Sequence record: NZ_CP088228.1
Reading direction: 5' to 3' (one strand)
From: a plasmid
Length of the DNA: 64,000 bases
Position numbers and translations under genes: made by a program. The notes beneath the pieces were generated by a model that saw only the letters and a program-made list of their open reading frames with translations, was not told the DNA's origin and searched no databases. Below are positions 13,261 through 56,200 of this stretch, piece by piece; position 1 is the first letter of the stretch, and each line of letters opens with the position of its first letter.

Positions 13261-13389
13261 GCAGCATAAAGCGTGGATATACCTGGTAAGAAAGAGCACC
13301 TGCCCGGTATAATCGACGTGGCGCTTGAGGCTTTTTGCCTCATGACGTGAAGGTGGTTTGTTGCCGTGTTGTGTGGCAGAAAGCAGAAA

Positions 13390-13455
13390 GCCCCGTAGTT
13401 AATTTTCATTAACCCACGAGGCCCCCTGTATGTCTCAACAACAACAGTATGGCCT
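13390..13455 (-). ncRNA. sok: Putative Sok-like antisense RNA
   Basis: Inferred from hok/sok family organisation (antisense to hok leader at mok start); not independently visible. Confidence 0.3.
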
Positions 13456-13645
13456 CTTACCGTGCTTAATGCAAGGAGGAGTAAACCATGAAACTGCCGC
13501 GAAACGCCCTTATCTGGTGCGTATTAATCGTGTGTATAACGCTCTTAATATTCACATGCCTGACCCGGAACCGCTTATGCGAACTCCGGCTAAAGGACGG
13601 GGACAGGGAGGTCGCGGCAAGCCTGGCTTACGAATCCAACGGTAA
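13430..13645 (+). CDS. mok: Mok-like overlapping reading frame
   Basis: 71-aa ORF overlapping hok in another frame, as in hok/mok/sok loci. Confidence 0.4.
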
Positions 13646-13754: not shown

Positions 13755-13979
13755 CATCCCGAAGGGTGCAGTCGCATGCATGAACAACCCGGAAGGTCTG
13801 TTCCCCTGCGGGGAACGGGGGAAGGGGGACGCGCCTTCGGCGCTGCCCCTCTGCTCCCTCCGCCTTGCCCTCTCTCCTGCCTGATTTTGCTGAAGTCAGC
13901 GCGCCATGAGTTACCTGCCTGTCTCTGGCTTCGGCCTGGTTTTCCCTGTGCTCTTCATCCCGGGCGTTATATCCGGCGT

Positions 13980-14517
13980 CCTGCTGGTTAACTTTCTCAG
14001 CTGCAGCTCAGTGGCCATAACCCAAAAAACGGGCAGGGCGATGGCCCCCTTCGGCTCCCGGCCAGCGCTGCTGTCCGGTCGTCGAGCCCCACTCCGCCAG
14101 GGCGGCCGCTGCGCACCCGCCGGGCTCCGCCGAACCCGCAAGCGGTTTCGGGCTGACGCTAGGGTCTGATGGCGAAGGTCAGGGGCTGCGGCTTCTCCGG
14201 CCGTGCCGTCCGGAACGCCTTCACCGCGCCGGCTGATGCCGTCGCTTTAATGGCGCCACGCCGTTCCGACGTGTCGGGTGTGTGCATCCTGTTCCCCCGG
14301 TGAAGCCATCCCCCGTGCGTCCTCACGCGGAGGGCTGCTTGTAGCACCGTCGTGTCGTCATCCGAAGGGTGAAATGCACTCCGCCAAAACTTTTTGCGTG
14401 CCGCAAAAACTTTCGTCTGCGCCCTTCTTCTGCCGCCCCGCCGTTGCTCCTTTTGCCCTTTGCCGCGAGAGAACTCACCAGGGAGATGGACAACCATCAC
14501 CACAGGAGAAAACCAGG
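13980..14517 (+). repeat. Family A repeat copy 2
   Basis: Aligns with 8074-8548 and 17288-17827. Confidence 0.7.
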
Positions 14518-14832
14518 ATGTACACACAAAACGTCAACGTCAAAACCGCCGCTCAGGAATCTTCCAGGAAGATAGGGGGAAAAACCGTGTCGTACACGTT
14601 CCTCGTCGCTGAGCAGAAAAAAAACTCAGCGGAGGAACCGGACGTTCTGGAGTTCAGCAGCCTGGCTGAGCTGAAGAAACTGCGCAGAAACTGCCCCGAA
14701 ACGATGCGCTGCACCTATTTCTACGCCCTCAGCAGCGGCGTCGATAAACAGTTCCGCCATATCCATGTGGCTGAAGCAGACCACTTCAAACAGTTTGTGC
14801 GCCTGATCGAGCGCGCAGGTATCGACATTTAA
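14518..14832 (+). CDS. Hypothetical protein (104 aa) with repeat-encoded N-terminus MYTQNVNVKTAAQES
   Basis: ATG 14518 after aggagaaaaccagg; diverges from 8549 ORF after about codon 17. Confidence 0.55.
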   Translation: MYTQNVNVKTAAQESSRKIGGKTVSYTFLVAEQKKNSAEEPDVLEFSSLAELKKLRRNCPETMRCTYFYALSSGVDKQFRHIHVAEADHFKQFVRLIERAGIDI

Positions 14833-17138: not shown

Positions 17139-17287
17139 TCGGGAGTCTGTGCCCTGATGGATACCATCAGGGCAACCGCAAAAAAACGCATCCCCTTCGG
17201 GGAAACGGGGAGGGCGAAAGCGCCTCCGGCGCTCCTGCCGTTCCCCGTTGCTGTGCTTCACTCCTTACCTGCGAGCATAGCCAGCAT

Positions 17288-17827
17288 CCTGCTGGTTAAC
17301 TTTCTCTGCTGCAGCTCAGTGGCCATAACCTGAAAACAGGGCAGGGTGATGGCCCCCTTCGGCTCCCGGCCAGCGCTGCTGTCCGGTCGTCGAGCCCCAC
17401 TCCGCCAGGGCGGCCGCTGCGCACCCGCCAGGCTCCGCCGAACCCCTTCGGGTTTCGGGCCATACGGCTAGGGTCTGATGGCGAAGGTCAAAGGCTGCGG
17501 CTTCTCCGGCCGTGCCGTCCGGAACGCCTTCACCGCGCCGGCTGATGCCGTCGCTTTAAGGCCGCCACGCCGTTCCGACGTGTCGGGTGTGTGCATCCTG
17601 TTCCCCCGGTGAAGCCATCCCCCGTGTGTCCTCACGCGGAGGGCTGCTTGTAGCACCGTCGGGTCGTCATCCAAGGGGTGAAATGCACTCCGCCAAAACT
17701 TTTTGCGTGCCGCAAAAACTTTAGTCTCCGCCCCTTTCCTTCCGCCCTTCGCCGTTGCTCCTTTGCCCTTTGCCGCGAGAGAACTCACCAGGGAGATGGA
17801 CAACCATCACCACAGGAGAAAACCAGG
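17288..17827 (+). repeat. Family A repeat copy 3
   Basis: Aligns with copies 1 and 2. Confidence 0.7.
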
Positions 17828-18121
17828 ATGCACACACGAAACGTCAACGTCAAAACCGCCGCTCAAGAATCTACCGGAAGATGTGATTCAAACCTCACCA
17901 TGTCCCAGTTCACGGATCTGTTTTGCTGGGTCCTGGCCGCATCGGAAGGGGAGCCACAACCGGCAATTTTTACGCCGCCAGAGAATGCCACTGAGCTGAC
18001 GTTAATAAATGACGAATGCCCGGATTATATCTCTGTCTGGTTTGTAGATGGTCGCCCGGTGGCAGCTGCAATGCCGCTGGATAATTTTCATCGCGTTATT
18101 TCTTCATCTCTTACTAAATAA
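17828..18121 (+). CDS. Hypothetical protein (97 aa) with repeat-encoded N-terminus MHTRNVNVKTAAQES
   Basis: ATG 17828; identical first 15 aa to ORF 8549, then unrelated sequence. Confidence 0.55.
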   Translation: MHTRNVNVKTAAQESTGRCDSNLTMSQFTDLFCWVLAASEGEPQPAIFTPPENATELTLINDECPDYISVWFVDGRPVAAAMPLDNFHRVISSSLTK

Positions 18122-18987: not shown

Positions 18988-19527
18988 TTACTGTTCGTTG
19001 TTAAGCGATGCTGTTTCAGTAGTTTTTATCTCATGCTCCTTACCCGCAACTGGCGCCAGGCGTTCAGAAAGTAACTTTTTTCTGGCCAACAAAACGCGAT
19101 ATATATTTTTGATATCCTGAGCATACGCCTTGCGCTGCACAATCAGCTTTTTGCTCGGCCCAGTATTATACATCCCCACGCTGTCCCAGTTTTTTCCGTA
19201 TGACCTGAAGTTGTGCGCCAGTACCCATGCACCCGTATAAACGCAGATACATGGATCATTCAGCAGGCGCTCACGGGTAATATTGAAGTTTTTAAGTTTA
19301 CCGTAATGAGAGCTGTTTACCTGCATCCCACAGACATCTTCTGTTCCATTCCTGTTAGATCCATTTATCGCACCCGGCTTAAGTCTGCTCTCTTTAATCG
19401 AAATTGACATAAGCAGCAGTGGATCAATTTGATAATCTTTCCCGGCCTGATCAAAGCACATTTGTGGAGCTGCGCCAGCAGACATGGAAAGGGTCAGCAA
19501 TGCCGCAGGTAGTATCGATATTTTCAT
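18988..19527 (-). CDS. Lytic transglycosylase (F geneX/orf169, R1 gene 19 homologue)
   Basis: 179 aa with signal peptide and SLT catalytic segment KESRLKPGAIN...GMQVNSSH; collinear with F Orf169. Confidence 0.8.
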   Translation of the reverse strand: MKISILPAALLTLSMSAGAAPQMCFDQAGKDYQIDPLLLMSISIKESRLKPGAINGSNRNGTEDVCGMQVNSSHYGKLKNFNITRERLLNDPCICVYTGAWVLAHNFRSYGKNWDSVGMYNTGPSKKLIVQRKAYAQDIKNIYRVLLARKKLLSERLAPVAGKEHEIKTTETASLNNEQ

Positions 19528-19639
19528 GGTTTGGCCTTTTAGCGAAATAAACGGGCTCTGGAGAGGCGCTTTAAAAAATACCCCGGCGGATCGTCGTAAT
19601 CAAGTAAATTCACTACAAACGCGCGTGAGCGCTCTCCCG

Positions 19640-20110
19640 AAGGGATTTAACACCTGTCCGAAATAAACATGCCAGAACGGTAGACGGTATTAACATGCCG
19701 CTCTTTACTAACCCTTTTAAACATCACACCCCACGCAAGACTTCGTCTTGCAGATTTTTTCTTTTAATTCATATATATACCTGTGCTTATTATGCGGAAT
19801 TATGCTGTGTGAACGATAAAGGTGTGTGCATCAGCACACATTGCAGTGCCTGAACCCCACACACTACAGTGCCTAATCAAGCACTGTAGTGTGTGCTAAT
19901 CCAGCACTGCTGAGTGTGGGGATTGTGTGTATTCAATAAATAGAGTAACTTAAAAATGGGTAGTGCCTGATGAACACACATCACAGTGCCTGATGCACAC
20001 ACATGGTGGTGCCTGATGCACACACATGACAGTGCCGGATTAGCACACATCCAAAAGCCAGATTCACGCAAATCCTCAGTAAGTTACAGAACAACGTAAC
20101 TCCGGGAACT
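19640..20110. other. oriT: F-type origin of transfer (oriT) with nick site and TraM-binding repeats
   Basis: Minus strand reads gcaagacgaagtcttgcGTGGGGTGT|GATG, matching F gcaaaaacttgtttttgcGTGGGGTGT|GGTG (nick between + positions 19726/19727); downstream direct/inverted repeats cacacaYNRYRGTGCC x6 (19840-20045) resemble sbm TraM sites. Confidence 0.75.
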
Positions 20111-20171
20111 GACATATAAGTAGCATTGCAGTGCCGCATCAGGCACTGCATGAAATTTTTGAGAAAATATC

Positions 20172-20558
20172 ATGCCAAGAAAGAACATCTACTTTAAAGA
20201 TAAAATTGACAGAGAAATAAATGATATTCTTGAGATTGAGTTACAAAAGGGCGCAACAACGTCTGACATGAACTATTCTTCAATAGTCAACGAATTAGTT
20301 CGACTCGGACTGATGGTATACAAATCAAAGGAAGAGGGCTCAACTTTCGATCTCGATGGTTTCCGACGCGACCTCATTAAGAAAGTCTCTGGCTCACGTG
20401 AAGGTATTATGATTCTCACCGCACTTGTCTCTGATATCTTTGTCACGATGAAGGGGCCAGACTCTGGAGTGAAGCTTGAAGAACTGATAAATGCCAACAT
20501 CAGCTCGATTAACGATGCAGAAGATAAGGCTGAAAAAGACCACTTCCTGACGGATTAA
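20172..20558 (+). CDS. traM: TraM, oriT-binding relaxosome accessory protein
   Basis: 128 aa; N-terminal RHH-like MPRKNIYFKDKIDREINDILE and C-terminal tetramerisation-like region, position next to oriT. Confidence 0.8.
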   Translation: MPRKNIYFKDKIDREINDILEIELQKGATTSDMNYSSIVNELVRLGLMVYKSKEEGSTFDLDGFRRDLIKKVSGSREGIMILTALVSDIFVTMKGPDSGVKLEELINANISSINDAEDKAEKDHFLTD

Positions 20559-21358: not shown

Positions 21359-21409
21359 GGGTCATGGGACAATTGCGCCCGCGTAAAGGGGTCCGCTTGG
21401 AAAACGGAA

Positions 21410-22736
21410 TCTATGGTCACTCCCGTTTTTGCAACACCGATTTTGACGACAAGTTGGCTTGCTTGAATCTATCCGGCGTCTGAATGGGATTTTATTCCCG
21501 CGCCTTGATGAGTTCCGCGCCTGATGAACCTCCAGAAAATATACGGCTTCAATGAGCCTTTCCGTTTTACAGGTTCCTCAACAGGCCGGTGGGCCGTTAG
21601 TATCATCAATATCAGTATTCGCAAAACCAGATCAGTAATTCTTTAAACCGGTGTATTTCTGCCGTTATGCTACATAAGTTTGCTGTCGTGCCGTTAGGGC
21701 CCAGGCTATTCTGGCCAGCTTGTTTGCCAGAGCACAAGTGACGACAAAGTTGCTTTTCCGGCACAGTAAATCCCTGACCCAATCGGCCAATTTGCCAGAC
21801 TGGTGTTCCAGTTTTTGTATGAATACCCTGGCACATTGAACCAACAAAGTTCGGATCTTTTTATTACCTCGCTTACTAATTCCCAGCAATGTCGTCCTAC
21901 CTCCCGTGCTGTACTGCCGAGGTACAAGCCCTGTTGCCGCCGCAAAGTCACGGCTGCTGGCGTACTGCTTCCCGTCGCCAATCTCAGTTGAAATAGTACT
22001 CGCTGTCAGTGTTCCGACGCAGGGAATGCTCAGCAAGCGCTGTCCAACCTCATCTTCGTCCAACTTTCGTTTCAACTGGGATTCCAAATCTTTAATCTGC
22101 TCAACAAGATAGTGATAATGCTGTTGTAATTTCAGCAATAACTGGCTGAGGTAAAGAGGCAAACTATTATCCTCAAGAATGGTACTCAGTCGGCTAATAA
22201 CGGCAGCTCCTCGGGGAACGCTAATGCCAAATTCCAGCAGAAAAGCATGCATTTGATTGGTTGTTTTTACCTTATCCTGAACCAGGGATTCACGGACACG
22301 ATGCAGAGCCCGCATTGCCTGCTGAGATTCCGTTCTGGGCTGCACAAAACGCATAGACGGACGCGATGCAGCTTCACAAATAGCTTCGGCGTCGACAAAG
22401 TCGTTTTTATTGCTTTTAACGAACGGGCGGACAAATTGTGGTGATATCAGCTTTGGGGAATGCCCCAACTCTTCCAACTTGCGTGCCATAAAGTGAGAAC
22501 CGCCACAGGCTTCCATTGCGATGGTTGTAGCGGGGCATGTCGCCAAAAATTCGATCAACTTTGGCCGGGTAAATTTTTTACGGTAAACAGCCTTCCCGCG
22601 ACGATCCTGGCAATGAATATGGAAAGAGTTTTTACCCAGATCGATACCAATGAGCGCAATGTTTTCCATGATAGTTCTCCGAATGAAAGCCTGTCCTCAG
22701 CATAGTACCGGGAAGGAGGGAGTGACCATCTCATTA
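21410..22736 (-). mobile_element. IS5075/IS4321-like IS110-family element (1327 bp) inserted in transposon IR
   Basis: Exactly 1327 bp between the two IR parts; identical inverted copy at 30494-31820; this family is known to target Tn21-family IRs. Confidence 0.8.
21665..22669 (-). CDS. IS110-family transposase (334 aa)
   Basis: MENIALIGIDLGKNSFHIHCQD... DEDD-type IS110 transposase N-terminus. Confidence 0.85.
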   Translation of the reverse strand: MENIALIGIDLGKNSFHIHCQDRRGKAVYRKKFTRPKLIEFLATCPATTIAMEACGGSHFMARKLEELGHSPKLISPQFVRPFVKSNKNDFVDAEAICEAASRPSMRFVQPRTESQQAMRALHRVRESLVQDKVKTTNQMHAFLLEFGISVPRGAAVISRLSTILEDNSLPLYLSQLLLKLQQHYHYLVEQIKDLESQLKRKLDEDEVGQRLLSIPCVGTLTASTISTEIGDGKQYASSRDFAAATGLVPRQYSTGGRTTLLGISKRGNKKIRTLLVQCARVFIQKLEHQSGKLADWVRDLLCRKSNFVVTCALANKLARIAWALTARQQTYVA

Positions 22737-22747
22737 AATATCCTACG

Positions 22748-25732
22748 CTAAGCCTCTTTTTTGTACAGACTGACATCAACTGTGCGTAACGGTCGATATT
22801 TACCGGATCCCAGCTTAAGATTATTACGCCAGATGTAATCTCCGCTCAGGTTGATATGCTCCCAGCCCAGAGGGGACAGGTGAGAAACCAACGGCTCATT
22901 AATCTGGAGCCCCTTTCGTTTTAGTGATTCGATGGCCCTTTCTATATACACCGTGTTCCACAACGTGATCGCCGCAGTCAACAGCGTCAGCCCGCTGGCG
23001 CGATAGCTTTGATTTTCCAGCCCCCTGTCTCTTATTTCGCCCAACCGGTGCATAAAAACGGCCCGCGCAAGCGCATTGCGGGCTTCACCCTTATTTAAAC
23101 CGGCTTGCACACGACGACGCAGGGCCGGATCGCGAAACCAGTCCAGCATAAACAACGTTCGCTCGATACGGCCAATTTCCCGTAACGCTTTTGCCAGGCC
23201 GTTTTGTTTGGGGTAGCTGGCCAACTTTTTTAACATCAGCGAGGCGGTTACCGTGCCCTGCTTGATCGAGGTCGCCAGGCGCAGTACCTCATTCCAGTGT
23301 GTCTCAATTTCTTTGAGATTCAGACTGGTCGTGGATATGATTGACTGAAGCCCAGAATATTTTTCCGCCTTTCCATGAATGAATAGCCGTTTGTCATGGA
23401 GATCCCGGATCCTTGGTGCAAATGCAAACCCAAGTAGATGCATTAGCGCAAAAACATGTTCAGTGAAACCCGCTGTATCGGTGTAATGCTCCGTAATTTC
23501 CAGGTCGCTTTCGTGATAGAGCAACCCATCCAGCACATGGGTAGAGTCCCTGACCCGGCTGATCACTTTGGTATAAAATGGGCTGTATTGGTCTGATATA
23601 TGTGTATAAACCTGCACGCCGGGTTCCTGACCGTACTTTAAATTCACCTGTCCGGCATAGCGGCCATGACTTCCGACTCGAAAATTCTGGCCGTCGGAGG
23701 ATGACGTTGTACCGTCCCCCCATGATGCTGCCAGTGGGCACTTTTTTTGTGCATTCACTAGTTCGGCAAGCGCGGCTGCATACGTTTCATCCCTGATGTA
23801 CCATGCCTGAATGCTTTCCAGCGACGCTTTTGTGGTTCCCGGGCAGGATTCTGCCATTTTAGTCAGCCCCAGGTTGATACCATCTGCCAGGATGGTGGTC
23901 AGCAACAGCTTTTTGTCTTTTGGTCTGACGTGATTATTTTTGAGGTGAGTAAAGTGGCGGGTAAATCCCGTCCAACTGTCCACTTCATCTAATATCTCGG
24001 TAATTTTTGGGTGCGGCAGCATGCCGTAAACCAGGTCGGCAAACGGTGATACAATCGAAGGAACGCTGTTATCAAGAGGCGTGACCTTCACACCTTTGTC
24101 CGATATATCAACATCAGGCAAATCACCGGCAATCGCCATCGCATTGACCTCTTCCAGTCGCGACGCCAGCAGTGTCATACGGGAGTGAAGGTATTCCTGG
24201 CAGTCTGTCGGAATGGCAAGCTGTAACTGTTTCTCTTTGAGTGATTTTTCAAAATCAGCAGGAGGAATGAGGTAATCGTCAAAATTCCTGTAGCGTCGTG
24301 ATCCTCTAACCCAGATATCACCAGATCGCAATGCGCCTTTCAGCTCATTCAGTACACAGAATTCATAATACCGGCGATCGATACCCGATGGCGTTATTAC
24401 CAACTTTTTCCAGCTCTCAGGGATAAACTTTACTGGCGCTGTTGACGGAACCTTGCGGAGTTGTTTGCGGTACATTTCTCTGACGGTATCCAGCGCATCA
24501 CCGAGTGGCAGTGCTGAAGGGGCTGCACTGAACTGCAATGCAGACAACATACGGGGCGCATATTTACGCAGCGTGCTGTATTTTTCGGTGATCAGATGAA
24601 GCGGATCAAAATTATCCTTTCGGGCCAGAAACTGTGTTTCCTCCAGACTGGTGATAAATTCCGGCCAGGGAAGTACGTCTTCTATCGCCGCCCAGGGATC
24701 TTCTCCTGACTCCCGTGCGTTTAGCAGCGCCTGCCCAACAGTAAGATATTGCCTTAACTTGCTCTGGATGAGTTTTCCTGTTTTCTGAAGCCGTTCGGCT
24801 TGTGTGCGCTTTGCCCTGCTGAACAAGCTACCCAGGATACGTTCGTGTAGTTCGATGATTTCATCGGTAAGCGTTGCCCTTGCTTCTGAGATAATACAAA
24901 CCAGCACGGCATAACGACGTGTGCCGGAGAATTTTGCCAGGTCCCTGCTACTCATTTTCCGGCCTTCGCGAGCCAGTTTCAGCAGTCGGTTCTGGTGAAC
25001 GGAAAGCGTAATACCTTCCGGCAGTGCCAACCCCTCAATGGCATTCAACCGATCAATATGTTGCAGCACGTTTTTACCGTTAATCTTACCCGGGGGCTGA
25101 AGCAGCCAGGCAAGACGGGAAAGTTGCTCATCACCTGATGCAAGCAGATTATCCAGTGCTGTTTTATGTCGTTGTTCCAGTTGCGTCGTCAGTGTAGAAA
25201 ATACGGCTCTGTCTGCAAGTGTTGCGGCTTCAGCAAGGGTTCGCTCCATCACATCAACGGAAGGGAAAATAACGTTGTTGTTGTGCAACCAAGCGAGCAT
25301 CTCTTCAGCAAGAATCAGGCCTTTGTCGGTCCGCATGGCGTGCGGATATAAATGGCGGATGCATGTTTTTTGCAATGACCTGTTGAAAGGCACTAATCCC
25401 AAGTAGCGATAGAGTTCGGCAAGATGCTCCCAACGGGTTTCCTCCCTCGTTGCGTACTCTCGCCATAAATCAGGTTGAAGTTTCAATCTCTCTGCCACTC
25501 TGGACATAACGCCATCGTGAGGGAGACTGTTTTTGTCTGGAGTAAAACCCGGCCCTCGCAGATAACAGAGTAAAACGGCAAAGCCCAGGCGGTTAGCGGG
25601 TCTCCGGTGTTTGTTGATGAGGACCAGATCCTGCTCACTTAAAAAGCACATCCTGGTTAGCAGAATGTCATCATCCGGCACAATCAGTAAGCGTTCTTTT
25701 TCATCACTGCTCAGTATCTGTCGCCGTGGCAT
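22748..25732 (-). CDS. tnpA: Tn3-family transposase TnpA (994 aa)
   Basis: Size and sequence of Tn21/Tn3 TnpA; stop codon lies within inner IR. Confidence 0.9.
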   Translation of the reverse strand: MPRRQILSSDEKERLLIVPDDDILLTRMCFLSEQDLVLINKHRRPANRLGFAVLLCYLRGPGFTPDKNSLPHDGVMSRVAERLKLQPDLWREYATREETRWEHLAELYRYLGLVPFNRSLQKTCIRHLYPHAMRTDKGLILAEEMLAWLHNNNVIFPSVDVMERTLAEAATLADRAVFSTLTTQLEQRHKTALDNLLASGDEQLSRLAWLLQPPGKINGKNVLQHIDRLNAIEGLALPEGITLSVHQNRLLKLAREGRKMSSRDLAKFSGTRRYAVLVCIISEARATLTDEIIELHERILGSLFSRAKRTQAERLQKTGKLIQSKLRQYLTVGQALLNARESGEDPWAAIEDVLPWPEFITSLEETQFLARKDNFDPLHLITEKYSTLRKYAPRMLSALQFSAAPSALPLGDALDTVREMYRKQLRKVPSTAPVKFIPESWKKLVITPSGIDRRYYEFCVLNELKGALRSGDIWVRGSRRYRNFDDYLIPPADFEKSLKEKQLQLAIPTDCQEYLHSRMTLLASRLEEVNAMAIAGDLPDVDISDKGVKVTPLDNSVPSIVSPFADLVYGMLPHPKITEILDEVDSWTGFTRHFTHLKNNHVRPKDKKLLLTTILADGINLGLTKMAESCPGTTKASLESIQAWYIRDETYAAALAELVNAQKKCPLAASWGDGTTSSSDGQNFRVGSHGRYAGQVNLKYGQEPGVQVYTHISDQYSPFYTKVISRVRDSTHVLDGLLYHESDLEITEHYTDTAGFTEHVFALMHLLGFAFAPRIRDLHDKRLFIHGKAEKYSGLQSIISTTSLNLKEIETHWNEVLRLATSIKQGTVTASLMLKKLASYPKQNGLAKALREIGRIERTLFMLDWFRDPALRRRVQAGLNKGEARNALARAVFMHRLGEIRDRGLENQSYRASGLTLLTAAITLWNTVYIERAIESLKRKGLQINEPLVSHLSPLGWEHINLSGDYIWRNNLKLGSGKYRPLRTVDVSLYKKEA

Positions 25733-25786
25733 AAATGCTCTCCCTGCATACGGACGCTGTCCGCTTGGACGTTCAAAATATACGCA

Positions 25787-26410
25787 TCAAGAACATGCTT
25801 TGAGTTTAACAATGCGTATAACCGTTCGTTCTGAAACGCCACACAACCTTGCGGTATCACGGATGCTCTGCCTGTTTTTAACCCGAAGCTCTATGATTTT
25901 TTCATGCAATTGATGATCTGCCTGACGTCCCCGAAATTTACCGGCCACCTTGGCTTTCGCTATCCCTTCCTCTTGGCGCCGGCGACGATCCTGATAGTCT
26001 TTGCGAGCTATGGCGGCCAGCATATCAAGCATCATTCCGTTAATAGCCTTAAGTATTGCAAGGGTAAAGTCATCGCCAGCATGTGTTGCAAGAGCCATAT
26101 GGCTCGTTGGGAGGTCAAGACTGACAACCACAAGGTGTTTTTCCTGGATAAGATGCTTTAGTTTTTGCCAGCCCTCTTCATCCAGGCGCGAAAGGCGATC
26201 AACCTGCTCGATGAGAATAATGTCACCAGGTGCAGCATCATCAAGTAACCGTAAAAGTTCTGGCCGTTGAAGTGATGCCCCGGATACATTTTCGGTGTAC
26301 CAACTGGCCAGCCGAAATCCTTTTTCTTCAACAAAGGCTTTCATCCGATTTTTTGCTCGGAGAGCATCCTGTTCTTTTGTTGATGCGCGGAGGTAACCAT
26401 GAATGTACAT
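25787..26410 (-). CDS. tnpR: Serine recombinase/resolvase TnpR (207 aa)
   Basis: N-terminal catalytic YLRASTKEQ and C-terminal HTH. Confidence 0.85.
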   Translation of the reverse strand: MYIHGYLRASTKEQDALRAKNRMKAFVEEKGFRLASWYTENVSGASLQRPELLRLLDDAAPGDIILIEQVDRLSRLDEEGWQKLKHLIQEKHLVVVSLDLPTSHMALATHAGDDFTLAILKAINGMMLDMLAAIARKDYQDRRRRQEEGIAKAKVAGKFRGRQADHQLHEKIIELRVKNRQSIRDTARLCGVSERTVIRIVKLKACS

Positions 26411-26834
26411 TTTTCACCCATTTATGACGTTTAAGTGATGATCATAATGTACGTGACAGATAGGTGATGATCCAAGGGGAAAATGGCGACACTTTAGGCT
26501 ATGACACTGGGGTATACATTAATGGCACATTTAATCCATGATTGACCCTGTTTCAGTTTCGTTTATAGTAAGACGCTGTTTGCCTTGGCAGACTCCGCGG
26601 CCAGCCTTGAATATCTTCATCTGGTTTATCTGATCCCTGAAGGTGTACACACCGACCATCAAGGAGTAATAAAAACTACCATGCATATGACGCCACCCTG
26701 AGTTTTCCCCTTCTCTGTCGTTCTGAGTAACCCTCAGCGCGCACTCTTTAACATCCCGTCTGCGGATGTGCTTTACCGTATCTAAATTTTTTGCCCTTTA
26801 CGGGCTGACTGTATTCAAAAACTGAGAAACGACT
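26411..26834. other. Probable res region between tnpR and cargo
   Basis: Inferred from Tn21-type organisation (res upstream of tnpR); subsites not individually resolved. Confidence 0.4.
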
Positions 26835-28313
26835 ATGTTGCTGTCCTCGACGCGTAAGGACTGGCTGGGTAACGTCCGTGGAGACGTCCTCGCCGGTATT
26901 GTTGTCGCGCTCGCGCTTATCCCTGAAGCGATCGCCTTTTCCATCATCGCTGGTGTTGACCCGCAAGTTGGGCTCTACTCTGCGTTTTGTATCCCGCTGA
27001 TAATCGCCATCTGTGGTGGTCGTCCAGGGATGATATCTTCGTCAACCGGTGCTATGGCATTGCTGATGGTCACCCTAGTGAAGGACCACGGCTTGCAGTA
27101 TTTACTGGCAGCCACCGTTCTTACAGGTGTGATTCAGCTTATTGCGGGCTATCTGAAGCTTGGAAGCCTGATGCGCTATGTTTCCCGCTCGGTAGTTACC
27201 GGTTTTGTTAATGCGCTGGCGATCCTCATTTTCATGGCGCAGTTGCCGGAGTTGACCAACGTCACCTGGCACGTTTACGCCCTGACGGCGGCCGGTCTAG
27301 GCATTATTTATCTGTTCCCGTACCTCAATAAAACCATCCCCTCGCCGCTGGTCTGCATCGTCGTGCTGACCGGGATCTCCATGTGGCTGCATCTGGACGT
27401 ACGCACTGTCGGCGACATGGGTAAGTTGCCGGACAGCCTGCCAGTATTTCTGTTACCCGATGTACCTCTCAATCTCGATACCCTATTAATCATTCTGCCT
27501 TATTCCGCCGGCCTTGCCGTGGTGGGGCTGCTTGAGTCAATGATGACCGCGACTATTGTGGATGACATGACCGATACACCGAGCGACAAGAACCGGGAAT
27601 GCAAAGCACAGGGTATCGCCAACATTGGCGCCGCATTTATTGGCGGTATGGCTGGGTGCGCGATGATCGGTCAGTCGGTGATCAACGTGAAATCTGGGGG
27701 GCGTGGCCGCCTCTCCGCACTCACTGCGGGCGTTGTCCTGCTTTGTATGGTGGTTTTCCTGCGTGACTGGGTCTCACAAATCCCAATGGCGGCCCTGGTC
27801 GCGGTCATGATCATGGTCTCTATCGGTACCTTCTCCTGGGGGTCGATCGCTAACTTACGCAGCCATCCACTGTCAACCAGTGTCGTCATGCTGGCCACCG
27901 TGGTGGTAGTGGTCGCCACGCATAATCTGGCGTATGGCGTCTTAACCGGCGTTCTGATTGCCTCATTGAACTTTGCCACCAAAGTGGCCCGTTTTATGGC
28001 GGTGTCGTCCGAACTTAAAGCGTCAACGCGGATCTACACCGTAGCCGGTCAGGTGTTCTTTGCTTCTGCCGATCGGTTCATGAGCCACTTCGATTTTCGC
28101 GAAGCGGTGGAGCACGTAGTCATTGACGTCTCACATGCCCATTTCTGGGATATTACGTCGGTCAGCGCACTCGACAGGGTGGTTATTAAGTTCCGCCGTG
28201 AAGGCACGAACGTGGAAATCCGTGGAATGAATCAGGCTACCCGCACAATTGTTGACCGCTTCGGGGTGCATGACAAACCTGAAGAAGTGGAAAAATTAAT
28301 GGGCGGCCATTAA
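26835..28313 (+). CDS. SulP-family anion transporter with C-terminal STAS domain (492 aa)
   Basis: Multiple TM segments, SulP-like N-terminus, C-terminal STAS-like region. Confidence 0.75.
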
Positions 28314-28330
28314 CAGTCAGGAGAACAGAG

Positions 28331-29158
28331 ATGAACAATACCGTTATTGCCTGCGTTGACGGCTCACCGTCTACCCGACCTGTGTGCGAATACGCGGCCT
28401 GGGCCGCCAATCTGCTGGATGCGCCGCTGTCCCTGCTGCACGTACTGGAGAAAGACGTACATCCTGCCGTGTCAGATTTGACCGGAAGTATCGGCATTGA
28501 TAGCCAGGCGCATCTCACCGAAGAGTTGGTGAAAGTTGAAGGAGAGCGTAACCGATTATTAATGGCACAGGGCAAAGCCATACTGGCTAGCTGTGCGAAG
28601 TTGCTGAATGATGCTGGTCATGCTGATGTTCAATTACTGCAAAAACATGGCGCGTTGGATGAAATCCTGGCTGATTTAGGGGATGTTCGCCTGATGGTGC
28701 TGGGCCGCCGTGGAACGCAGAACCCGGTTGGCAGCCACCTGGAAAGCATTATTCGCCTGCAGAAAAAACCGGTACTTATCGTGCCGGAGGCTTATTCTCC
28801 ACCATCCAAAGTTATGTTCGCCTATGATGGCAGCGATGAGAGTCGCAAAAACCTGACGCGCCTGACACTTAGCCCGCTACTCAATGGCCTGGTTTGCCAC
28901 CTCGTGATGGTTAAGGGGGATACACGAGCCTTGCAGGAAGCACAGAGTGTGCTGCAAGCAGCTGGCATCGCGACCGAAAGCCACCTACTGGAAGGTACAT
29001 CCGTTGCTGAGGCGCTCTGCCGTCACGCTAATGAAAACGACATTAACCTGATTGTGATGGGTGCCTATGGCCATTCGCCATTGCGGCGATTCTTTATCGG
29101 CAGCAACACCACCGCCATGTTGGAAAAAACACAAATCCCACTCTTAATGCTGAGGTGA
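28331..29158 (+). CDS. Tandem-domain universal stress protein (UspA family, 275 aa)
   Basis: Two Usp-like halves (...VIACVDGS... and ...VLIVPEAYSPP...GAYGHSPLRRFFIGSNT...). Confidence 0.7.
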   Translation: MNNTVIACVDGSPSTRPVCEYAAWAANLLDAPLSLLHVLEKDVHPAVSDLTGSIGIDSQAHLTEELVKVEGERNRLLMAQGKAILASCAKLLNDAGHADVQLLQKHGALDEILADLGDVRLMVLGRRGTQNPVGSHLESIIRLQKKPVLIVPEAYSPPSKVMFAYDGSDESRKNLTRLTLSPLLNGLVCHLVMVKGDTRALQEAQSVLQAAGIATESHLLEGTSVAEALCRHANENDINLIVMGAYGHSPLRRFFIGSNTTAMLEKTQIPLLMLR

Positions 29159-29162
29159 TTAT

Positions 29163-29186
29163 TGTCCCCGGAAATAACTCCGGGGA
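29163..29186 (+). terminator. Stem-loop after uspA
   Basis: gtccccggaaataactccggggac. Confidence 0.5.
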
Positions 29187-29218
29187 CAAATAAATACATT
29201 CAATTTACTGGAGTGAAC

Positions 29219-29968
29219 ATGAAACATGAAATTGCGGTGAGTGTAATAATCCCCGTTTACAACGCAGAAAAAACCATCAAATCCTTGATCGAAGATATCT
29301 TATTAGAAGACAGGATCAACATTGAAGTTATTATCGTTAACGATGGTTCCTCAGACAACACGTCAACGATAATTAACTCCATAAAGGATGGCAGAGTTCA
29401 AGTTATTGAACAAAATAATAAAGGTGTATACGCGGCCAGAAATAATGGATTAGACAAGCATAAAGGCCAGTGGGTCATGTTTCTGGATGCCGATGACGAT
29501 GTGTCTGAAGGATTCATTTATAACAGGTACATCCAGGCTTCCAGCCATAATGCCGATGTGCTTTTGTCCAATGCCTGGAAGCTTTGGCATGAAAGCGATA
29601 ATAAAAAACCTGTACATACCAACCAACCTTATGATGAAATTTTATCCGGCAATGCGTGGGTAAGTCACGCAGTAAAAGTCAGGGAATGGCCACATTACCT
29701 TTGGTTACAGATAGTTAGATCTGACTATATCAGGAATAACAATCTGTCATTTCATGATGGCCGGAGTCATAAAGATATTTTATGGACGATGGAATTGGCG
29801 TTGGCAAATGGGCGTTTCTACATATCAAAAGATATGGACTACACCTACAAGTACAATAATGAATCCATCACAAATCGCGGTGATTATTTCGACGTCAGAG
29901 CAGAATGCTATATTGATGTAATATCTAAAACCATCGGCCACGCAAAGTCGAAAAAAATAATGATTTGA
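29219..29968 (+). CDS. Family 2 glycosyltransferase (GT2), low-GC
   Basis: VSVIIPVYNAEKTI...IIVNDGSSDNT...DADD GT2 signature; ATG 29219 with ggagtg RBS; local GC much lower than surroundings. Confidence 0.75.
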   Translation: MKHEIAVSVIIPVYNAEKTIKSLIEDILLEDRINIEVIIVNDGSSDNTSTIINSIKDGRVQVIEQNNKGVYAARNNGLDKHKGQWVMFLDADDDVSEGFIYNRYIQASSHNADVLLSNAWKLWHESDNKKPVHTNQPYDEILSGNAWVSHAVKVREWPHYLWLQIVRSDYIRNNNLSFHDGRSHKDILWTMELALANGRFYISKDMDYTYKYNNESITNRGDYFDVRAECYIDVISKTIGHAKSKKIMI

Positions 29969-30493
29969 GCGTATCGCTGTTTAGGCATGCCCTATATGAG
30001 GCCAGACACTTCCTTGGTTTATATAGAAAAAAGGTGAGGGGCAAATAAAAAATAAGGAGGTTATTTGTTAAAAAAATAGCATATAGAGATTTAGTAAAAG
30101 GTGTATATAGCCTTAGTGATATTTTCTTTTTACTAAAAGTTTTCGTAAAAACAAAAAAATTCACTGATGCTAGCCCGAAATTAAAATGGATAATTATATT
30201 TCTATTGGCTTAACATGGGGAATACTTATCTCGCTGCGAATGCCGTAGTTAATCCAGCGATACGTGACTGACGGTGAGTAATTGGTAGCATTATATCTTT
30301 CATTTTACCCTCCCATTACTGGGGATCCCTCAGTAATAGGTGGTCTTTCGTCTCCGCTTCCTTGGTATATGCAAACTTGATACGGGCACGATGAGCTATC
30401 AACATACTCGTGAGGTAGTATTGGTGATTTTTTAGCTATCACCATAGACCCGTGAAGCAATCTGTACGAAAAACAGGCTTAGCGTAGGATATT

Positions 30494-31820
30494 TAATGAG
30501 ATGGTCACTCCCTCCTTCCCGGTACTATGCTGAGGACAGGCTTTCATTCGGAGAACTATCATGGAAAACATTGCGCTCATTGGTATCGATCTGGGTAAAA
30601 ACTCTTTCCATATTCATTGCCAGGATCGTCGCGGGAAGGCTGTTTACCGTAAAAAATTTACCCGGCCAAAGTTGATCGAATTTTTGGCGACATGCCCCGC
30701 TACAACCATCGCAATGGAAGCCTGTGGCGGTTCTCACTTTATGGCACGCAAGTTGGAAGAGTTGGGGCATTCCCCAAAGCTGATATCACCACAATTTGTC
30801 CGCCCGTTCGTTAAAAGCAATAAAAACGACTTTGTCGACGCCGAAGCTATTTGTGAAGCTGCATCGCGTCCGTCTATGCGTTTTGTGCAGCCCAGAACGG
30901 AATCTCAGCAGGCAATGCGGGCTCTGCATCGTGTCCGTGAATCCCTGGTTCAGGATAAGGTAAAAACAACCAATCAAATGCATGCTTTTCTGCTGGAATT
31001 TGGCATTAGCGTTCCCCGAGGAGCTGCCGTTATTAGCCGACTGAGTACCATTCTTGAGGATAATAGTTTGCCTCTTTACCTCAGCCAGTTATTGCTGAAA
31101 TTACAACAGCATTATCACTATCTTGTTGAGCAGATTAAAGATTTGGAATCCCAGTTGAAACGAAAGTTGGACGAAGATGAGGTTGGACAGCGCTTGCTGA
31201 GCATTCCCTGCGTCGGAACACTGACAGCGAGTACTATTTCAACTGAGATTGGCGACGGGAAGCAGTACGCCAGCAGCCGTGACTTTGCGGCGGCAACAGG
31301 GCTTGTACCTCGGCAGTACAGCACGGGAGGTAGGACGACATTGCTGGGAATTAGTAAGCGAGGTAATAAAAAGATCCGAACTTTGTTGGTTCAATGTGCC
31401 AGGGTATTCATACAAAAACTGGAACACCAGTCTGGCAAATTGGCCGATTGGGTCAGGGATTTACTGTGCCGGAAAAGCAACTTTGTCGTCACTTGTGCTC
31501 TGGCAAACAAGCTGGCCAGAATAGCCTGGGCCCTAACGGCACGACAGCAAACTTATGTAGCATAACGGCAGAAATACACCGGTTTAAAGAATTACTGATC
31601 TGGTTTTGCGAATACTGATATTGATGATACTAACGGCCCACCGGCCTGTTGAGGAACCTGTAAAACGGAAAGGCTCATTGAAGCCGTATATTTTCTGGAG
31701 GTTCATCAGGCGCGGAACTCATCAAGGCGCGGGAATAAAATCCCATTCAGACGCCGGATAGATTCAAGCAAGCCAACTTGTCGTCAAAATCGGTGTTGCA
31801 AAAACGGGAGTGACCATAGA
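30494..31820 (+). mobile_element. IS5075/IS4321-like IS110-family element (second, inverted copy)
   Basis: Identical to 21410-22736 in opposite orientation, inserted in the other transposon IR. Confidence 0.8.
30561..31565 (+). CDS. IS110-family transposase (334 aa)
   Basis: Identical protein to 21665-22669. Confidence 0.85.
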   Translation: MENIALIGIDLGKNSFHIHCQDRRGKAVYRKKFTRPKLIEFLATCPATTIAMEACGGSHFMARKLEELGHSPKLISPQFVRPFVKSNKNDFVDAEAICEAASRPSMRFVQPRTESQQAMRALHRVRESLVQDKVKTTNQMHAFLLEFGISVPRGAAVISRLSTILEDNSLPLYLSQLLLKLQQHYHYLVEQIKDLESQLKRKLDEDEVGQRLLSIPCVGTLTASTISTEIGDGKQYASSRDFAAATGLVPRQYSTGGRTTLLGISKRGNKKIRTLLVQCARVFIQKLEHQSGKLADWVRDLLCRKSNFVVTCALANKLARIAWALTARQQTYVA

Positions 31821-31847
31821 TTCCGTTTTCCAAGCGGACCCCAGACA

Positions 31848-32630
31848 ATGAAAGCAAAAAAATTAGCCGCATTAATAGTTACAACATACATTAGCTTTAG
31901 TTCAACGGCACACGCTTCAGCACCTCAGCCGGTATTCAGCCCGGAACAGGAAGCTCGTATCGGCGAAATCGCTGCCGACTATCTGGTATCTCACCCGGAG
32001 ATTCTGGTGACCGTCAGTAATAAGCTGCAGGAACAGCAGGAAACACGTAAGCAGAAGATGTTTGCACTCAACGTCATGGAGAATCAGGCGAACCTTCTGC
32101 ATGATCCGGACACCCCGGCTTACGGGCCTGATACTGCAAAGGTCGCGGTGATTGAATTCTTTGATTACCAGTGCGTGTTCTGCAGCCGCTTCGCGCCGGA
32201 ACTGGAGAAGGTCATGAAAGCGCAGCCGGACGTCCGCTACCTCTTTAAGGAGTGGCCAATATTTGGTGGTCGCTGGGAAGCTTCACTTCAGGCTGCACAG
32301 CAGGGGCTGACGGTCTGGCAACAGAAAGGGCCGCAGGCCTATGTCACCTATCACAATGCCATCTACGCCACCGGCCATAATGAAGGCAAGCTGACGGCAG
32401 AGGATATACTCGCGGCAGCGTCAAAGGCAGGGCTGGCCGCCTCTGTGCCGGGCGACCATACCGCGTCCCTTGAGAAAAACAGTAACCTGGCAGAGGAACT
32501 GGGGCTCACCGGAACGCCGGGGATCGTCGTCATGCCCGTTAGCGGGGCGACTCCCGACACCATCACGGTTTTCCCGGAAGCCGTAACCGCTGACAGACTA
32601 CAGGCCGCGATAAGAAAAGCCTCCCGGTGA
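31848..32630 (+). CDS. DsbA/DsbG-like periplasmic thiol:disulfide oxidoreductase (260 aa)
   Basis: Signal peptide, thioredoxin-fold CXXC (FDYQCVFCSRF). Confidence 0.7.
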   Translation: MKAKKLAALIVTTYISFSSTAHASAPQPVFSPEQEARIGEIAADYLVSHPEILVTVSNKLQEQQETRKQKMFALNVMENQANLLHDPDTPAYGPDTAKVAVIEFFDYQCVFCSRFAPELEKVMKAQPDVRYLFKEWPIFGGRWEASLQAAQQGLTVWQQKGPQAYVTYHNAIYATGHNEGKLTAEDILAAASKAGLAASVPGDHTASLEKNSNLAEELGLTGTPGIVVMPVSGATPDTITVFPEAVTADRLQAAIRKASR

Positions 32631-35744: not shown

Positions 35745-37364
35745 CTATCCACGACATTCGCGGAACAGGTCGCTTTCCGGAAGATAGGCCCCGGTGGTGA
35801 TGTCCCAGAGCCCCAGTACGGACGCGAAAAGGTTATCGTGGGAATATGTCCTGTTAACGGCATTATGCTGCAGACACGCGGCGTTAATATTTTTAGCAGC
35901 AATGAAGCCTGGCGACATCCAGAGCTGCATCGGGATGTGCGTCTGCTGATCCGGTGCCAGTTTGTAGGGGGTACCGTGCAGATACAGTCCGCTCTCTCCC
36001 AGAGATTCGCCGTGATCGGACACATACAGCAGTACGGTGTTGTACTGTTCGCTGTATTGCTTAAGCTTTTCAATCATCTGCGCTAACACATAGTCGGTGT
36101 GGCGAATGGTATTGTCGTAGGTATTAACCAGCTGTTCCTGCGTGCAGTTTTCGATATCGCTGCGCGCACATTCCGGCATGAAGTGACGATGCTCTGCCGG
36201 ATAACGCTGGTAATAGGTCGGTCCATGGCTGCCAATCATATGGAAGGCGATCAGCTTGTCTCCGGCCATTTTGCCGATTTCGGTATCCAGGTTTTCCAGC
36301 ATAACATCGTCATAGCAGGTTTTACCGTCACACAGTTTTTTACTGATACCGGGATTAATTTCGACAGTCGGGATACGGCTGCATACGCCTTTACACCCGC
36401 CATCGTTTTCTTTCCACAACAGCGAAACCCCCGTTTTCTGCACGATGTCGAGGACATTTTCACTGCCGGCAGCCTTTTTACCATCGTAATCCGTCCGGTT
36501 CATATCCGAGAACATACAGGGCACCGAGACTGCGGTCGCCGTGCCACAGGAACGCATATTCCTGAACGAAATAACGCCATCGATTTTGCTGGTAAAGGCA
36601 TTTGTGTCACGCGGGTAGCCGTTCATGGAGAAATTCTGGCTCCGTGCCGTTTCGCCAATTACCAGGAACATCAGCGTGGGTTTACCATTCCGGGTAACGC
36701 GCCTTGCATCATCCCCCAGCGTCCGGAAAGGCATTTTCGTCGTAAAATAGGTATCCTTCACGTAATGGAAAGTGCTGTACGCATAGTTTGCCGGGATAAT
36801 TTCTTTGTTCAGCGTCGGGTTATTGCGCCCGACAGAAGCATAATCCTGGTAATACAGAGCGGCAACACCTGCAATCAGGATCAGCGAAGCGAGCATGGAA
36901 AGCAGCCGGTGGGCAACCCCTTTGTACCATTTGTCTGCATATTCAATTTTAATCAAAAACAACAGGATAGCCGGAAGAATGCCCATGAAGACCAGCCACA
37001 GCACCAGTGAGCCATTCAGGTAGGCATGCGCTTCCTGTGGGTTTGTTTCCAGTATATTTTCGATCATGGACTGATCAAACATCACTTTATATTTCAGTGT
37101 GGCGTAACTCACCACCGAACCGGTGACCAGCAACAGGGCAAAGAAGGGTTTGAGCAGGTAGCGAACCGAGAAGGGCATAAACACAAAGTTAAGCGCTGCA
37201 ACCAGCACAAACGGAATGGAGATGACGAACCCCGCCCTCACATGTTCAAGACGGCTCAGGATATCGTAGAAATGCAGCAACACCGGCCAGTTAAGTAAGA
37301 ATGCAAAAACGAGTGCCAGAAGTAAAACCAAGGGGATTACCCTCATCCTGAAAAGTACGGGCAT
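35745..37364 (-). CDS. mcr-10: MCR-9/MCR-10-lineage phosphoethanolamine-lipid A transferase (539 aa); xerC adjacency fits the mcr-10 context
   Basis: N-terminus MPVLFRMRVIPLVLLLALVFAFLLNWPVLLHFYDILSRLEHV and full-length EptA/MCR architecture (5 TM + sulfatase domain with conserved Thr/His/Cys); tyrosine recombinase gene immediately upstream. Confidence 0.7.
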   Translation of the reverse strand: MPVLFRMRVIPLVLLLALVFAFLLNWPVLLHFYDILSRLEHVRAGFVISIPFVLVAALNFVFMPFSVRYLLKPFFALLLVTGSVVSYATLKYKVMFDQSMIENILETNPQEAHAYLNGSLVLWLVFMGILPAILLFLIKIEYADKWYKGVAHRLLSMLASLILIAGVAALYYQDYASVGRNNPTLNKEIIPANYAYSTFHYVKDTYFTTKMPFRTLGDDARRVTRNGKPTLMFLVIGETARSQNFSMNGYPRDTNAFTSKIDGVISFRNMRSCGTATAVSVPCMFSDMNRTDYDGKKAAGSENVLDIVQKTGVSLLWKENDGGCKGVCSRIPTVEINPGISKKLCDGKTCYDDVMLENLDTEIGKMAGDKLIAFHMIGSHGPTYYQRYPAEHRHFMPECARSDIENCTQEQLVNTYDNTIRHTDYVLAQMIEKLKQYSEQYNTVLLYVSDHGESLGESGLYLHGTPYKLAPDQQTHIPMQLWMSPGFIAAKNINAACLQHNAVNRTYSHDNLFASVLGLWDITTGAYLPESDLFRECRG

Positions 37365-37700
37365 TACGATCTCCATCAATAATATGTCCCCGCCCGGGGT
37401 CACAGGTTGCACCAGAAAAAGGGCAACAGGTTATCAGACCCGGCGGTTCCTAAGCGAAACTATTTTTTAATGACTAGTACCCAATCAGTGAGTTATCTCT
37501 GGTACCCGGCCTGAGTCGCCGGTAGCGGTATTGGGATACAAAGCGGAGCAGCCAGCTGGCCGTTTACCGAAGGGAAAAGATGAAGACGTCCTTCAGACTG
37601 CGCAACAGGGGAAGCAGCGTAGTCCGGAGTTCCGCCTCCTCTGTTCAGACAGTACCGGATATGACAGCAGCACGGCTGCCACCGGCATTACTGTTACGGT

Positions 37701-37717
37701 TTCTTGTTAAGTTATTA
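37701..37717. other. Perfect palindrome ttaagttattaacttaa between xerC-like gene and mcr
   Basis: Seen directly 14 bp from recombinase stop codon. Confidence 0.4.
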
Positions 37718-37730
37718 ACTTAATATGATA

Positions 37731-38807
37731 TTAAATGTCAGTCAGATTCAGGCGATCGCGGGCCGTGCGCAGGCGCGCTTCGCCGCGGCGATCGTACTGC
37801 TGGGTGGTGGTGACGCTGGCATGCCCCATCGCGTCCTTTACCGTGATGAGATCCTCGCCATTATCGAGCATGGCGGTGGCAAAAGTTCGCCTTAAATCGT
37901 GCGGGGCACATTTTGTAACCCCCGCCTGGCGCTGGCGGACCTGCAGGACGTGATACACCGCCTGGTCGGTCAGCCGGTCGTTCGTCAGGGTGTCAAAGCG
38001 GCGGATACGGGTGAACAACGGCCCGTCTTTTTCTCCCCGCACGTCATCGATCCACGTCCTTAGCCGCTGCCAGGTGCCCGCCGGCATATAGGCCAACCGC
38101 TCCTTGTTTCCCTTACCCAGCACCCGGAGCGCCCGCTCATCTGTGACAACGTCACGCAAATCCAGCCCTACCGCCTCTGACCGGCGCAGGCCGCAGCCGA
38201 GAATGACGGCCAGCATTGCCGCATCGCGTACCCCGATGCTGGAGTCATCGGCCTCGCAGGCACCAAACAGCGCCCGTATCTCCTCCGGCGGCAGGGCCCG
38301 GCCGCGCGGCAGGCGGCTGCCCCTAAGGTTACGCACCGCCCGGATGTGCTGGAAGCTCTCGACGTCCATGAGTTTCAGCATCCAGGCTTCCTTCGCCACC
38401 CCCTTGAGTGCCGAAAGATAGGTGTTGACGGTCGCCGTGGCCCGGCCGGTGTCGCGCAGGAGCTCGGTCACGGCCATAACGTGATGACGGCGCAGGCTGC
38501 CCCAGCTGCAGGACTCCAGGGACGCGGCGCCGAGCATGCCGGCAACAATACCGAGGAACGAGGCCATGGTCTGCCGGCTGCGGGGGGAATTGAGGGAAAG
38601 CAGGTAGGCCCGGGCGGGACCGACCGGGCTTTCAGTACCAACCAGCGCCGGCAGGAAATCCACATCAAGCGGAATGACCGCCGGTGGCGGGAGCTGCTCG
38701 GGTTCATCGTCAGGCATCAGTGTCATCCGGGGCTCCGTCCGGGCCGGAAAGCGTCCGGCGCGCTGCGTGAAAAATCGGGGAAAAGTATACGCCAGAGCGT
38801 ACCGCAT
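37731..38807 (-). CDS. xerC: XerC/XerD-family tyrosine site-specific recombinase
   Basis: C-terminal HDLRRTFATAMLDNGEDLITVKDAMGHASVTTTQQY catalytic region; N-terminal extent uncertain. Confidence 0.8.
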   Translation of the reverse strand: MRYALAYTFPRFFTQRAGRFPARTEPRMTLMPDDEPEQLPPPAVIPLDVDFLPALVGTESPVGPARAYLLSLNSPRSRQTMASFLGIVAGMLGAASLESCSWGSLRRHHVMAVTELLRDTGRATATVNTYLSALKGVAKEAWMLKLMDVESFQHIRAVRNLRGSRLPRGRALPPEEIRALFGACEADDSSIGVRDAAMLAVILGCGLRRSEAVGLDLRDVVTDERALRVLGKGNKERLAYMPAGTWQRLRTWIDDVRGEKDGPLFTRIRRFDTLTNDRLTDQAVYHVLQVRQRQAGVTKCAPHDLRRTFATAMLDNGEDLITVKDAMGHASVTTTQQYDRRGEARLRTARDRLNLTDI

Positions 38808-39031
38808 AGAGTCTACTTTCTCAAACGTACATTTTAATAAGTAGATAAAGCAGCTATCTCGCCTTGATACTGGTGGTATTGCTCTTTACGAAACCTAGTC
38901 CGTTCCCTTAGCGGAAATGCTTATAGTTCCTTTGGATTGCTCGGCGCTGTGCTGGCTTTAGCCGTAACGAATATGACGAATGACGTCTTTTTCAAAGTGG
39001 GCCAGATAACCCTGATTGGCCTTTCCGCTAA

Positions 39032-40227
<1,196 letters not shown>

Positions 40228-51078: not shown

Positions 51079-51116
51079 CTTAGCGTAGGATAATTTCCTT
51101 TTTCCAAGCGGACCCC
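51079..51116 (-). repeat. Intact 38-bp Tn21-family terminal inverted repeat
   Basis: Minus strand GGGGTCCGCTTGGAAAAAGGAAATTATCCTACGCTAAG, same family as IS-interrupted IRs at 21388/31842; inner side faces res/resolvase. Confidence 0.8.

Positions 51117-53739: not shown

Positions 53740-56200
<2,461 letters not shown>

Follow-up and report, generated by a model that had tools for sequence, protein, structure and literature searches.

The insertion sequences (ISs) IS4321 and IS5075 target the terminal inverted repeats (IRs) of Tn21-type transposons, and their presence there is considered to inactivate the element (PMC5034289, PMC5955447, PMC5001619). In Tn21-subgroup transposons described with such insertions, for example Tn6317/Tn6256 and Tn6362, the 38-bp IR holds a 1327-bp IS at one set position and in one orientation, both IRs are sometimes occupied, target site duplications (TSDs) are often missing and the IS is regarded as a block to transposition (PMC5034289, PMC5955447). 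Here we describe a new instance within the window, that is, the whole analysed stretch of 64,000 nucleotides from the plasmid record NZ_CP088228.1. A 10,455-bp transposon of the Tn3 family, Tn21 subgroup, is located at positions 21388-31842, where it carries the genes tnpA, tnpR, sulP, usp and a frameshifted glycosyltransferase gene, harbors one IS in each IR and occupies the place of the conjugative tra operon on an F-like Enterobacter plasmid with the colistin-resistance gene mcr-10.1. All components are of known kinds. Comparison with a near-identical sister contig suggests that the tra operon was probably lost early and independently of the transposon, which would have inserted later at a TATCA target, removed the flanks of the old deletion scar through its transposase TnpA and received IS4321 only at a late stage.

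The overall arrangement of the element is similar to that of Tn6317/Tn6256 and Tn6362 with respect to the position of the 1327-bp ISs, but distinct in its TnpA, in its passengers (sulP/usp/glycosyltransferase) and in being without a resistance gene. The transposon is bounded by an inverted repeat of 1385 nt, the arms of which (21388-22772 and 30458-31842) are identical over the first 1368 nt from their outer ends, and each arm consists of the 1327-bp IS between 22 bp of outer and 16 bp of inner IR sequence. In silico removal of the ISs yields two identical 38-bp IRs (GGGGTCCGCTTGGAAAACGGAAAATATCCTACGCTAAG; 38/38 positions matching each other), split after base 22 into the halves GGGGTCCGCTTGGAAAACGGAA and AATATCCTACGCTAAG. 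These terminal repeats of ~38 bp are of the GGGG...ACGCTAAG type that characterizes the Tn21 subgroup, and share 30/38 positions with the presumed IR sequence of Tn21 itself. The large DDE transposase (~990 aa) is also as found in the Tn3 family, Tn21 subgroup, and is 57% identical to a Tn1696-type TnpA, while tnpR, located upstream of tnpA in the same direction, encodes a resolvase-domain protein. Thus, IR and TnpA comparisons agree with the original prediction, made from the window alone, of a Tn21-family transposon with both 38-bp IRs split at the same internal position. Without the ISs, the element would be a 7.8-kb Tn21-subgroup unit with the order IR-tnpA-tnpR-res-sulP-usp-pseudo-glycosyltransferase-IR, to which one IS4321 would have been added per IR. 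A literature search found no published Tn number or name for this transposon.

The two ISs are exact reverse complements of each other, and no further copies are present within the window. Each encodes a 334-aa DEDD transposase of the IS110 family (NF033542, 341 bits). While the original prediction was right in describing identical, inverted 1327-bp IS110-family elements of the IR-targeting kind, its label of IS5075-like is too loose: both copies match RefSeq-annotated IS4321 at 1327/1327 positions, compared with 1241/1327 (93.5%) for RefSeq-annotated IS5075, and by this alignment they are therefore IS4321 (IS1111 group of the IS110 family). Consistent with fixed-site insertion of IS4321, both copies follow base 22 of the IR, have the same orientation relative to the IR and lack a TSD of their own. 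The 12-bp subterminal repeat ATGGTCACTCCC is present in the IS, and the IS ends together with the putative circle junction AGATAATGAG agree with those published for IS4321/IS5075 (PMC5001619). The outer 22-bp halves of both window IRs are the transposon's own and directly abut backbone DNA. As predicted, the transposon itself has no 5-bp TSD, its left flank being GTAAA and its right flank AGACA. Comparison with other copies indicates that this absence is secondary, because TSDs are found there: TATCA without any IS, TTATT with IS4321 plus IS5075, TTTCG with two copies of IS5075, and TCATA with two copies of IS4321 in a 97% variant.

The backbone around the transposon is that of an F-like Enterobacter plasmid with mcr-10.1 (MCR-10.1, 539/539 aa identical; 35745-37364, minus strand). 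Since the window ends (positions 1 and 64000) map 293 bp apart within umuC of p11A14071_B_KPC, the window probably represents all but ~0.3 kb of a ~64.3-kb circular plasmid. In the intact plasmid pNDM-MCR10, the gene order runs from the lytic transglycosylase gene, oriT, traM and Arc, through traA...traD and traI, to dsbA and phd/relE and on to mcr-10 and xerC. On pNDM-MCR10, the left window junction falls 46 bp before the traA ATG and the right junction 23 bp after the traI stop codon, such that the stretch missing from the window spans 31,183 bp and 32 annotated genes. When 19 tra-operon proteins (traA to traI) of an intact relative were compared with the whole window by tblastn, no matches were obtained, and the TraM and DsbA flank controls were the only proteins to match; a location of tra genes elsewhere in the window is thereby rejected. 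The operon is thus absent from its normal place with oriT and traM retained, as had been proposed, and the dsbA-like start codon reported 5 bp from the right IR is indeed the ATG of a 260-aa DsbA-family gene. Two details of the earlier description do not hold. Rather than abutting traM, the transposon is separated from it by a minus-strand gene of the Arc family (213 aa) and a 150-bp spacer, and the missing operon extends from traA to traI, with dsbA following traI in the pNDM-MCR10 order, rather than from traJ through finO; neither traJ nor finO is annotated in the pNDM-MCR10-type backbone, and these names were rejected for the missing block.

The nearest relative of the window was found by looking up exact matches first to the DsbA and then to the Arc protein, and is the 72,193-bp contig JARXZG010000003.1 (GCA_030845095.1; L032/L041). 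Alignment of the two backbones gives 2 mismatches over 10,792 bp on the left of the transposon site and 2 over 10,789 bp on the right, with 100% identity in the 803 bp that directly adjoin the site on the left. The sister contig contains the same transposon, likewise between Arc and dsbA, with a core that is 99.97% identical. This contrasts with the window in several respects, namely that the sister transposon has the opposite orientation, its IRs are free of IS4321 (38/38 match to the window IR at the tnpA end, 37/38 at the other end) and it has a perfect TATCA duplication (TATCA/TATCA) at its ends, surrounded by 994 bp plus 396 bp of additional DNA. The passenger-end IR of the sister (L032 1798-1835) has a G-to-T change at position 20, near the IS4321 target position.

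When the transposon and one copy of TATCA are subtracted, the sister flanks form a sequence of 1,385 bp that is 100% identical, with the same internal junction, to the traA'::'traI scar of pEk72-1. The pEk72-1-type mcr-10 plasmids (NZ_CP088230.1) resemble the window in that oriT-traM-Arc is closely followed by dsbA, phd/relE, mcr-10.1 and xerC and no functional tra operon is present, but unlike the window they have kept the 1,385-bp scar and have no transposon there. No mobile element is found at the junction of the scar, which is common to many Enterobacter contigs. Among 23 contigs with the exact Arc allele of the window, 10 places were displayed; Arc and dsbA are ~1.5 kb apart or split only by the transposon in all 10, and a full tra operon is seen in none of them. 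The nearest relative thus has an IS-free transposon with its TATCA duplication inside an older scar, and the original claim that insertion of the transposon deleted the tra operon is probably wrong. If the history of the sister holds for the window, the loss linked to the transposon most likely amounts to these 1,385 bp only.

From the structure, the junction positions, the state of the sister and the identity of the scar, we infer an order and mechanism of events, which we consider likely overall. An ancestor would first have lost ~29.9 kb, from inside traA to inside traI, in a deletion whose junction has no mobile element, leaving the 1,385-bp scar between Arc and dsbA. The transposon would then have entered the scar with duplication of TATCA, a state preserved in the sister contig. 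Subsequently, intramolecular replicative transposition by TnpA onto GTAAA and AGACA would have deleted the scar sequence remaining on either side (994 bp and 396 bp), along with the two TSD copies. Indeed, the window junctions look TnpA-made, because on both sides the backbone adjoins the exact ends of IRs that belong to the transposon itself, unlike in three transposon copies (L015, L016 and L017) that have a foreign outer IR half. Finally, IS4321, which seeks Tn21-type IRs, would have entered both IRs, after which further TnpA-driven movement is expected to stop. IS4321 entry was probably the last step and an independent event, since the sister copy has no IS and the TSD-bearing copies carry differing IS combinations.

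The core of the window transposon is inverted relative to that of the sister, and two routes may account for this. In route A, an inversion-mode event to GTAAA would place the tnpA-end IR next to Arc and generate a second, inverted copy, and a deletion-mode event would then join the passenger end to AGACA. In route B, two deletion-mode events, one per side, would be followed, after IS4321 entry, by recombination between the inverted 1327-bp copies that flips the core, which would leave no trace because both IRs are identical. Both routes match the junctions base for base. A comparable process has been described for a Tn3-family element in clinical plasmids, which underwent successive short flank deletions by intramolecular transposition (PMC5142620). 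In that case, Tn1331-delta::IS26, a short flank and one TSD copy were removed per side in two steps, similar to the history favored here, and to route B, but on another transposon and plasmid, with no IS4321 capping and no change in orientation (He et al. 2016, PMC5142620).

Several observations weigh against this history. Tn3-family target immunity should make intramolecular events rare. No intermediate was found, and neither window junction is present in PLSDB, GTDB representative genomes or JGI metagenomes; the sister-type junction was likewise not found in PLSDB. The window has no trace of the scar, and it is the relationship to the sister from which the scar's former presence is deduced. 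Moreover, the plasmids are mosaic, with the left flank of the window being 99.4% identical to the tra-bearing p11A14071_B_KPC compared with 97.6-99.0% to pEk72-1, and recombination could therefore mislead the reconstruction.

The best surviving alternative, to which we attach a small probability, shares the old scar but not the sister's TATCA insertion: a scar-bearing, transposon-free ancestor would have gained the transposon separately at GTAAA or AGACA, with one adjacent deletion taking the 1,385-bp scar. This and the favored history involve equal numbers of TnpA events, and the transposon is abundant in Enterobacterales plasmids, yet the same element would have had to insert twice, independently, within 1.4 kb, on plasmids with ~4 mismatches between them in 21.6 kb. 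Somewhat less probable still is the scenario closest to the original prediction, whereby the tra operon was still intact when the transposon arrived, and the transposon then deleted the whole ~31-kb traA-traI block by intramolecular transposition or by recombination between two copies. Adjacent deletions are documented for the Tn3 family (PMC5142620), and the window junctions bracket the operon exactly as it is seen in pNDM-MCR10 (31,183 bp). The scar in the nearest relative, however, has no transposon at its own junction and has the transposon inserted within it, the operon is absent from every displayed place of the contigs sharing the Arc allele, and the sister scar, identical to that of pEk72-1, would have to be unrelated to the history of the window.

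In contrast to the expected arrest of the favored history, the IS4321-capped transposon might still be active, either because TnpA acted on the split IRs during the flank deletions or because the inverted IS4321 pair flips the 7.8-kb core beside dsbA. We regard this as very improbable, although it would fit the recurrence of the 10,455-bp unit at ~100% identity in several TSD-less sites. Fainter again is the chance that the junctions were made without TnpA by IS4321, through its recombinase or by homologous exchange between copies in different Tn21-family elements. L015, L016 and L017 have foreign sequence (GGGGTCGTCTCAG...) as the outer 22 bp of the IR, and their flanks have been exchanged through IS4321 homology; the resulting hybrid IRs consist of the transposon's inner half and a Tn1696/Tn21-type outer half joined across IS4321, which makes IS4321 a portable homology for exchange between Tn21-family elements. 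In the window, by contrast, both outer halves adjoining the backbone belong to the transposon, on which ground this origin was rejected, and the inverted orientation of the IS copies means that exchange between them only flips the core and cannot delete flanks. An assembly artefact, in which collapsed repeats of the transposon or IS copies hide additional DNA, has a very low probability. Short-read assembly does have difficulty with identical 1.3-kb inverted repeats and multiple IS copies, but the window is colinear to the base with its relatives on either side, and its ends map within a single gene of a relative at a distance of 293 bp, as a closed circle predicts.

Under the favored history, the tra-less state would represent ordinary plasmid decay, because the sister indicates that tra was lost before the transposon removed the last 1.4 kb. 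A transposon can thus erase an older deletion scar and thereby appear responsible for the loss of tra, which affects how such loss is attributed in mcr-10 plasmids. In this plasmid family, the tra genes beside dsbA have been lost or truncated repeatedly and from several causes: the scar of pEk72-1 is clean, IS5 adjoins traI fragments in p11894_1 and IS903B follows traG in p11A14071_B_KPC. Enterobacter plasmids from Nigeria similarly have truncated tra cassettes beside dsbA (PMC10940312). The window lacks the TraI, TraD and pilus/mating-pair genes of self-transmissible F-type (MPF_F/MOB_F) plasmids, and without a tra operon the mcr-10.1 plasmid cannot be self-transmissible, as originally predicted. 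Because the relaxase and coupling protein are gone, it would at best be mobilized by a helper with a matching relaxase, that is, a cognate TraI. The predicted lack of self-transfer fits the published failure of mcr-10 plasmids from Nigeria to conjugate (PMC10940312).

Table 1. Coordinates of the transposon, its insertion sequences and the adjoining backbone features in the window
Feature	Position	Strand	Remarks
Lytic transglycosylase gene, leading region	18988..19527	-	IagB/TrbN-type matches; 179/179 aa identical to p11A14071_B_KPC
Candidate nic-type motif CTTGCGTGGGGTGTG (minus-strand reading)	19722..19740	-	Within oriT region 19528-20171, which also has repeats
traM, relaxosome protein, intact	20172..20558	+	PRK13713; 128/128 aa identical to relatives
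Arc/ribbon-helix-helix DNA-binding gene, 213 aa	20596..21237	-	Divergent from lost traA promoter region; 212/213 aa identical to p11A14071_B_KPC
Left flank GTAAA	21383..21387		In relatives 46 bp upstream of traA ATG
Outer 22 bp, tnpA-end 38-bp IR	21388..21409	+	
IS4321 copy 1, 1327 bp	21410..22736	-	Transposase 21665-22669
Inner 16 bp, tnpA-end IR	22737..22752	+	
tnpA, Tn3-family transposase, 994 aa	22748..25732	-	NF033527, 1208 bits vs cut-off 500
tnpR, serine resolvase, 207 aa	25787..26410	-	PF00239; co-directional with tnpA
Presumed res region, between tnpR and sulP	26411..26834		Presumed from Tn21-subgroup organisation
SulP-family anion transporter, passenger gene	26835..28313	+	
Universal stress protein, passenger gene	28331..29158	+	PF00582
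Glycosyltransferase pseudogene	29219..30210	+	Frameshift near 29953-29956; tblastn, intact 331-aa homologue split over two frames
Inner 16 bp, passenger-end IR	30478..30493	-	
IS4321 copy 2, 1327 bp	30494..31820	+	Transposase 30561-31565
Outer 22 bp, passenger-end IR	31821..31842	-	
Right flank AGACA	31843..31847		In relatives 23 bp past traI stop codon
DsbA-family gene, 260 aa	31848..32630	+	Located after traI in intact relatives; 260/260 aa identical to pEk72-1

The entire 10,455-bp unit is also observed at ~100% identity, at differing insertion sites, on NZ_CP056752.1, NZ_MN842294.1 and CP026282.1, and the same transposon is present on NZ_CP058870.1 and NZ_CP134363.1. Base-level comparison of the copies L005, L006, L008 and L009 shows a core that is identical at no fewer than 7754 of 7757 positions. 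Other copies differ in that some have a TSD, some have IS5075 instead of IS4321 and some have hybrid outer IR halves. In NZ_CP056752.1 (L005, 1-16457), the IS4321-capped transposon is located between mirror-image nucleotidyltransferase/DUF86/cupin segments with the flanks GGCAA/TTGCC, an arrangement that is palindromic or possibly an assembly hairpin.

A solitary third Tn21-type IR (GGGGTCCGCTTGGAAAAAGGAAATTATCCTACGCTAAG) resides at 51079-51116 (minus strand), where it faces a resolvase/OsmC/TetR remnant. It matches the transposon IR at 36/38 positions and is without IS4321; its two mismatches (positions 18 and 24) lie on either side of the point at which IS4321 inserts, which might explain why it was spared. 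On the right-hand side of the transposon (31821-31850), IS4321 copy 2 reads towards dsbA, and the sequence that precedes the dsbA ATG in relatives, including a GAGAA stretch, has been replaced by the transposon end, such that the translation start signals and promoter of dsbA may be altered.

With respect to the remaining backbone, the candidate motif within the oriT region presumably resembles the nic site of F. The leading region contains a 540-610-bp repeat in three copies that are 89-93% identical (8075-8615, 13969-14585 and 17277-17883), as well as a sok RNA at 13319-13490, the only Rfam match in the window. The group II intron of p11A14071_B_KPC is absent from the window. The mcr-10.1 region (35745-38726, minus strand) has the usual xerC-type tyrosine recombinase neighbor, followed by an IS5-family copy. 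Two inverted 1.2-kb IS5-family copies (39027-40227 and 55005-56205) are 99.7% identical and could invert the intervening 15 kb.

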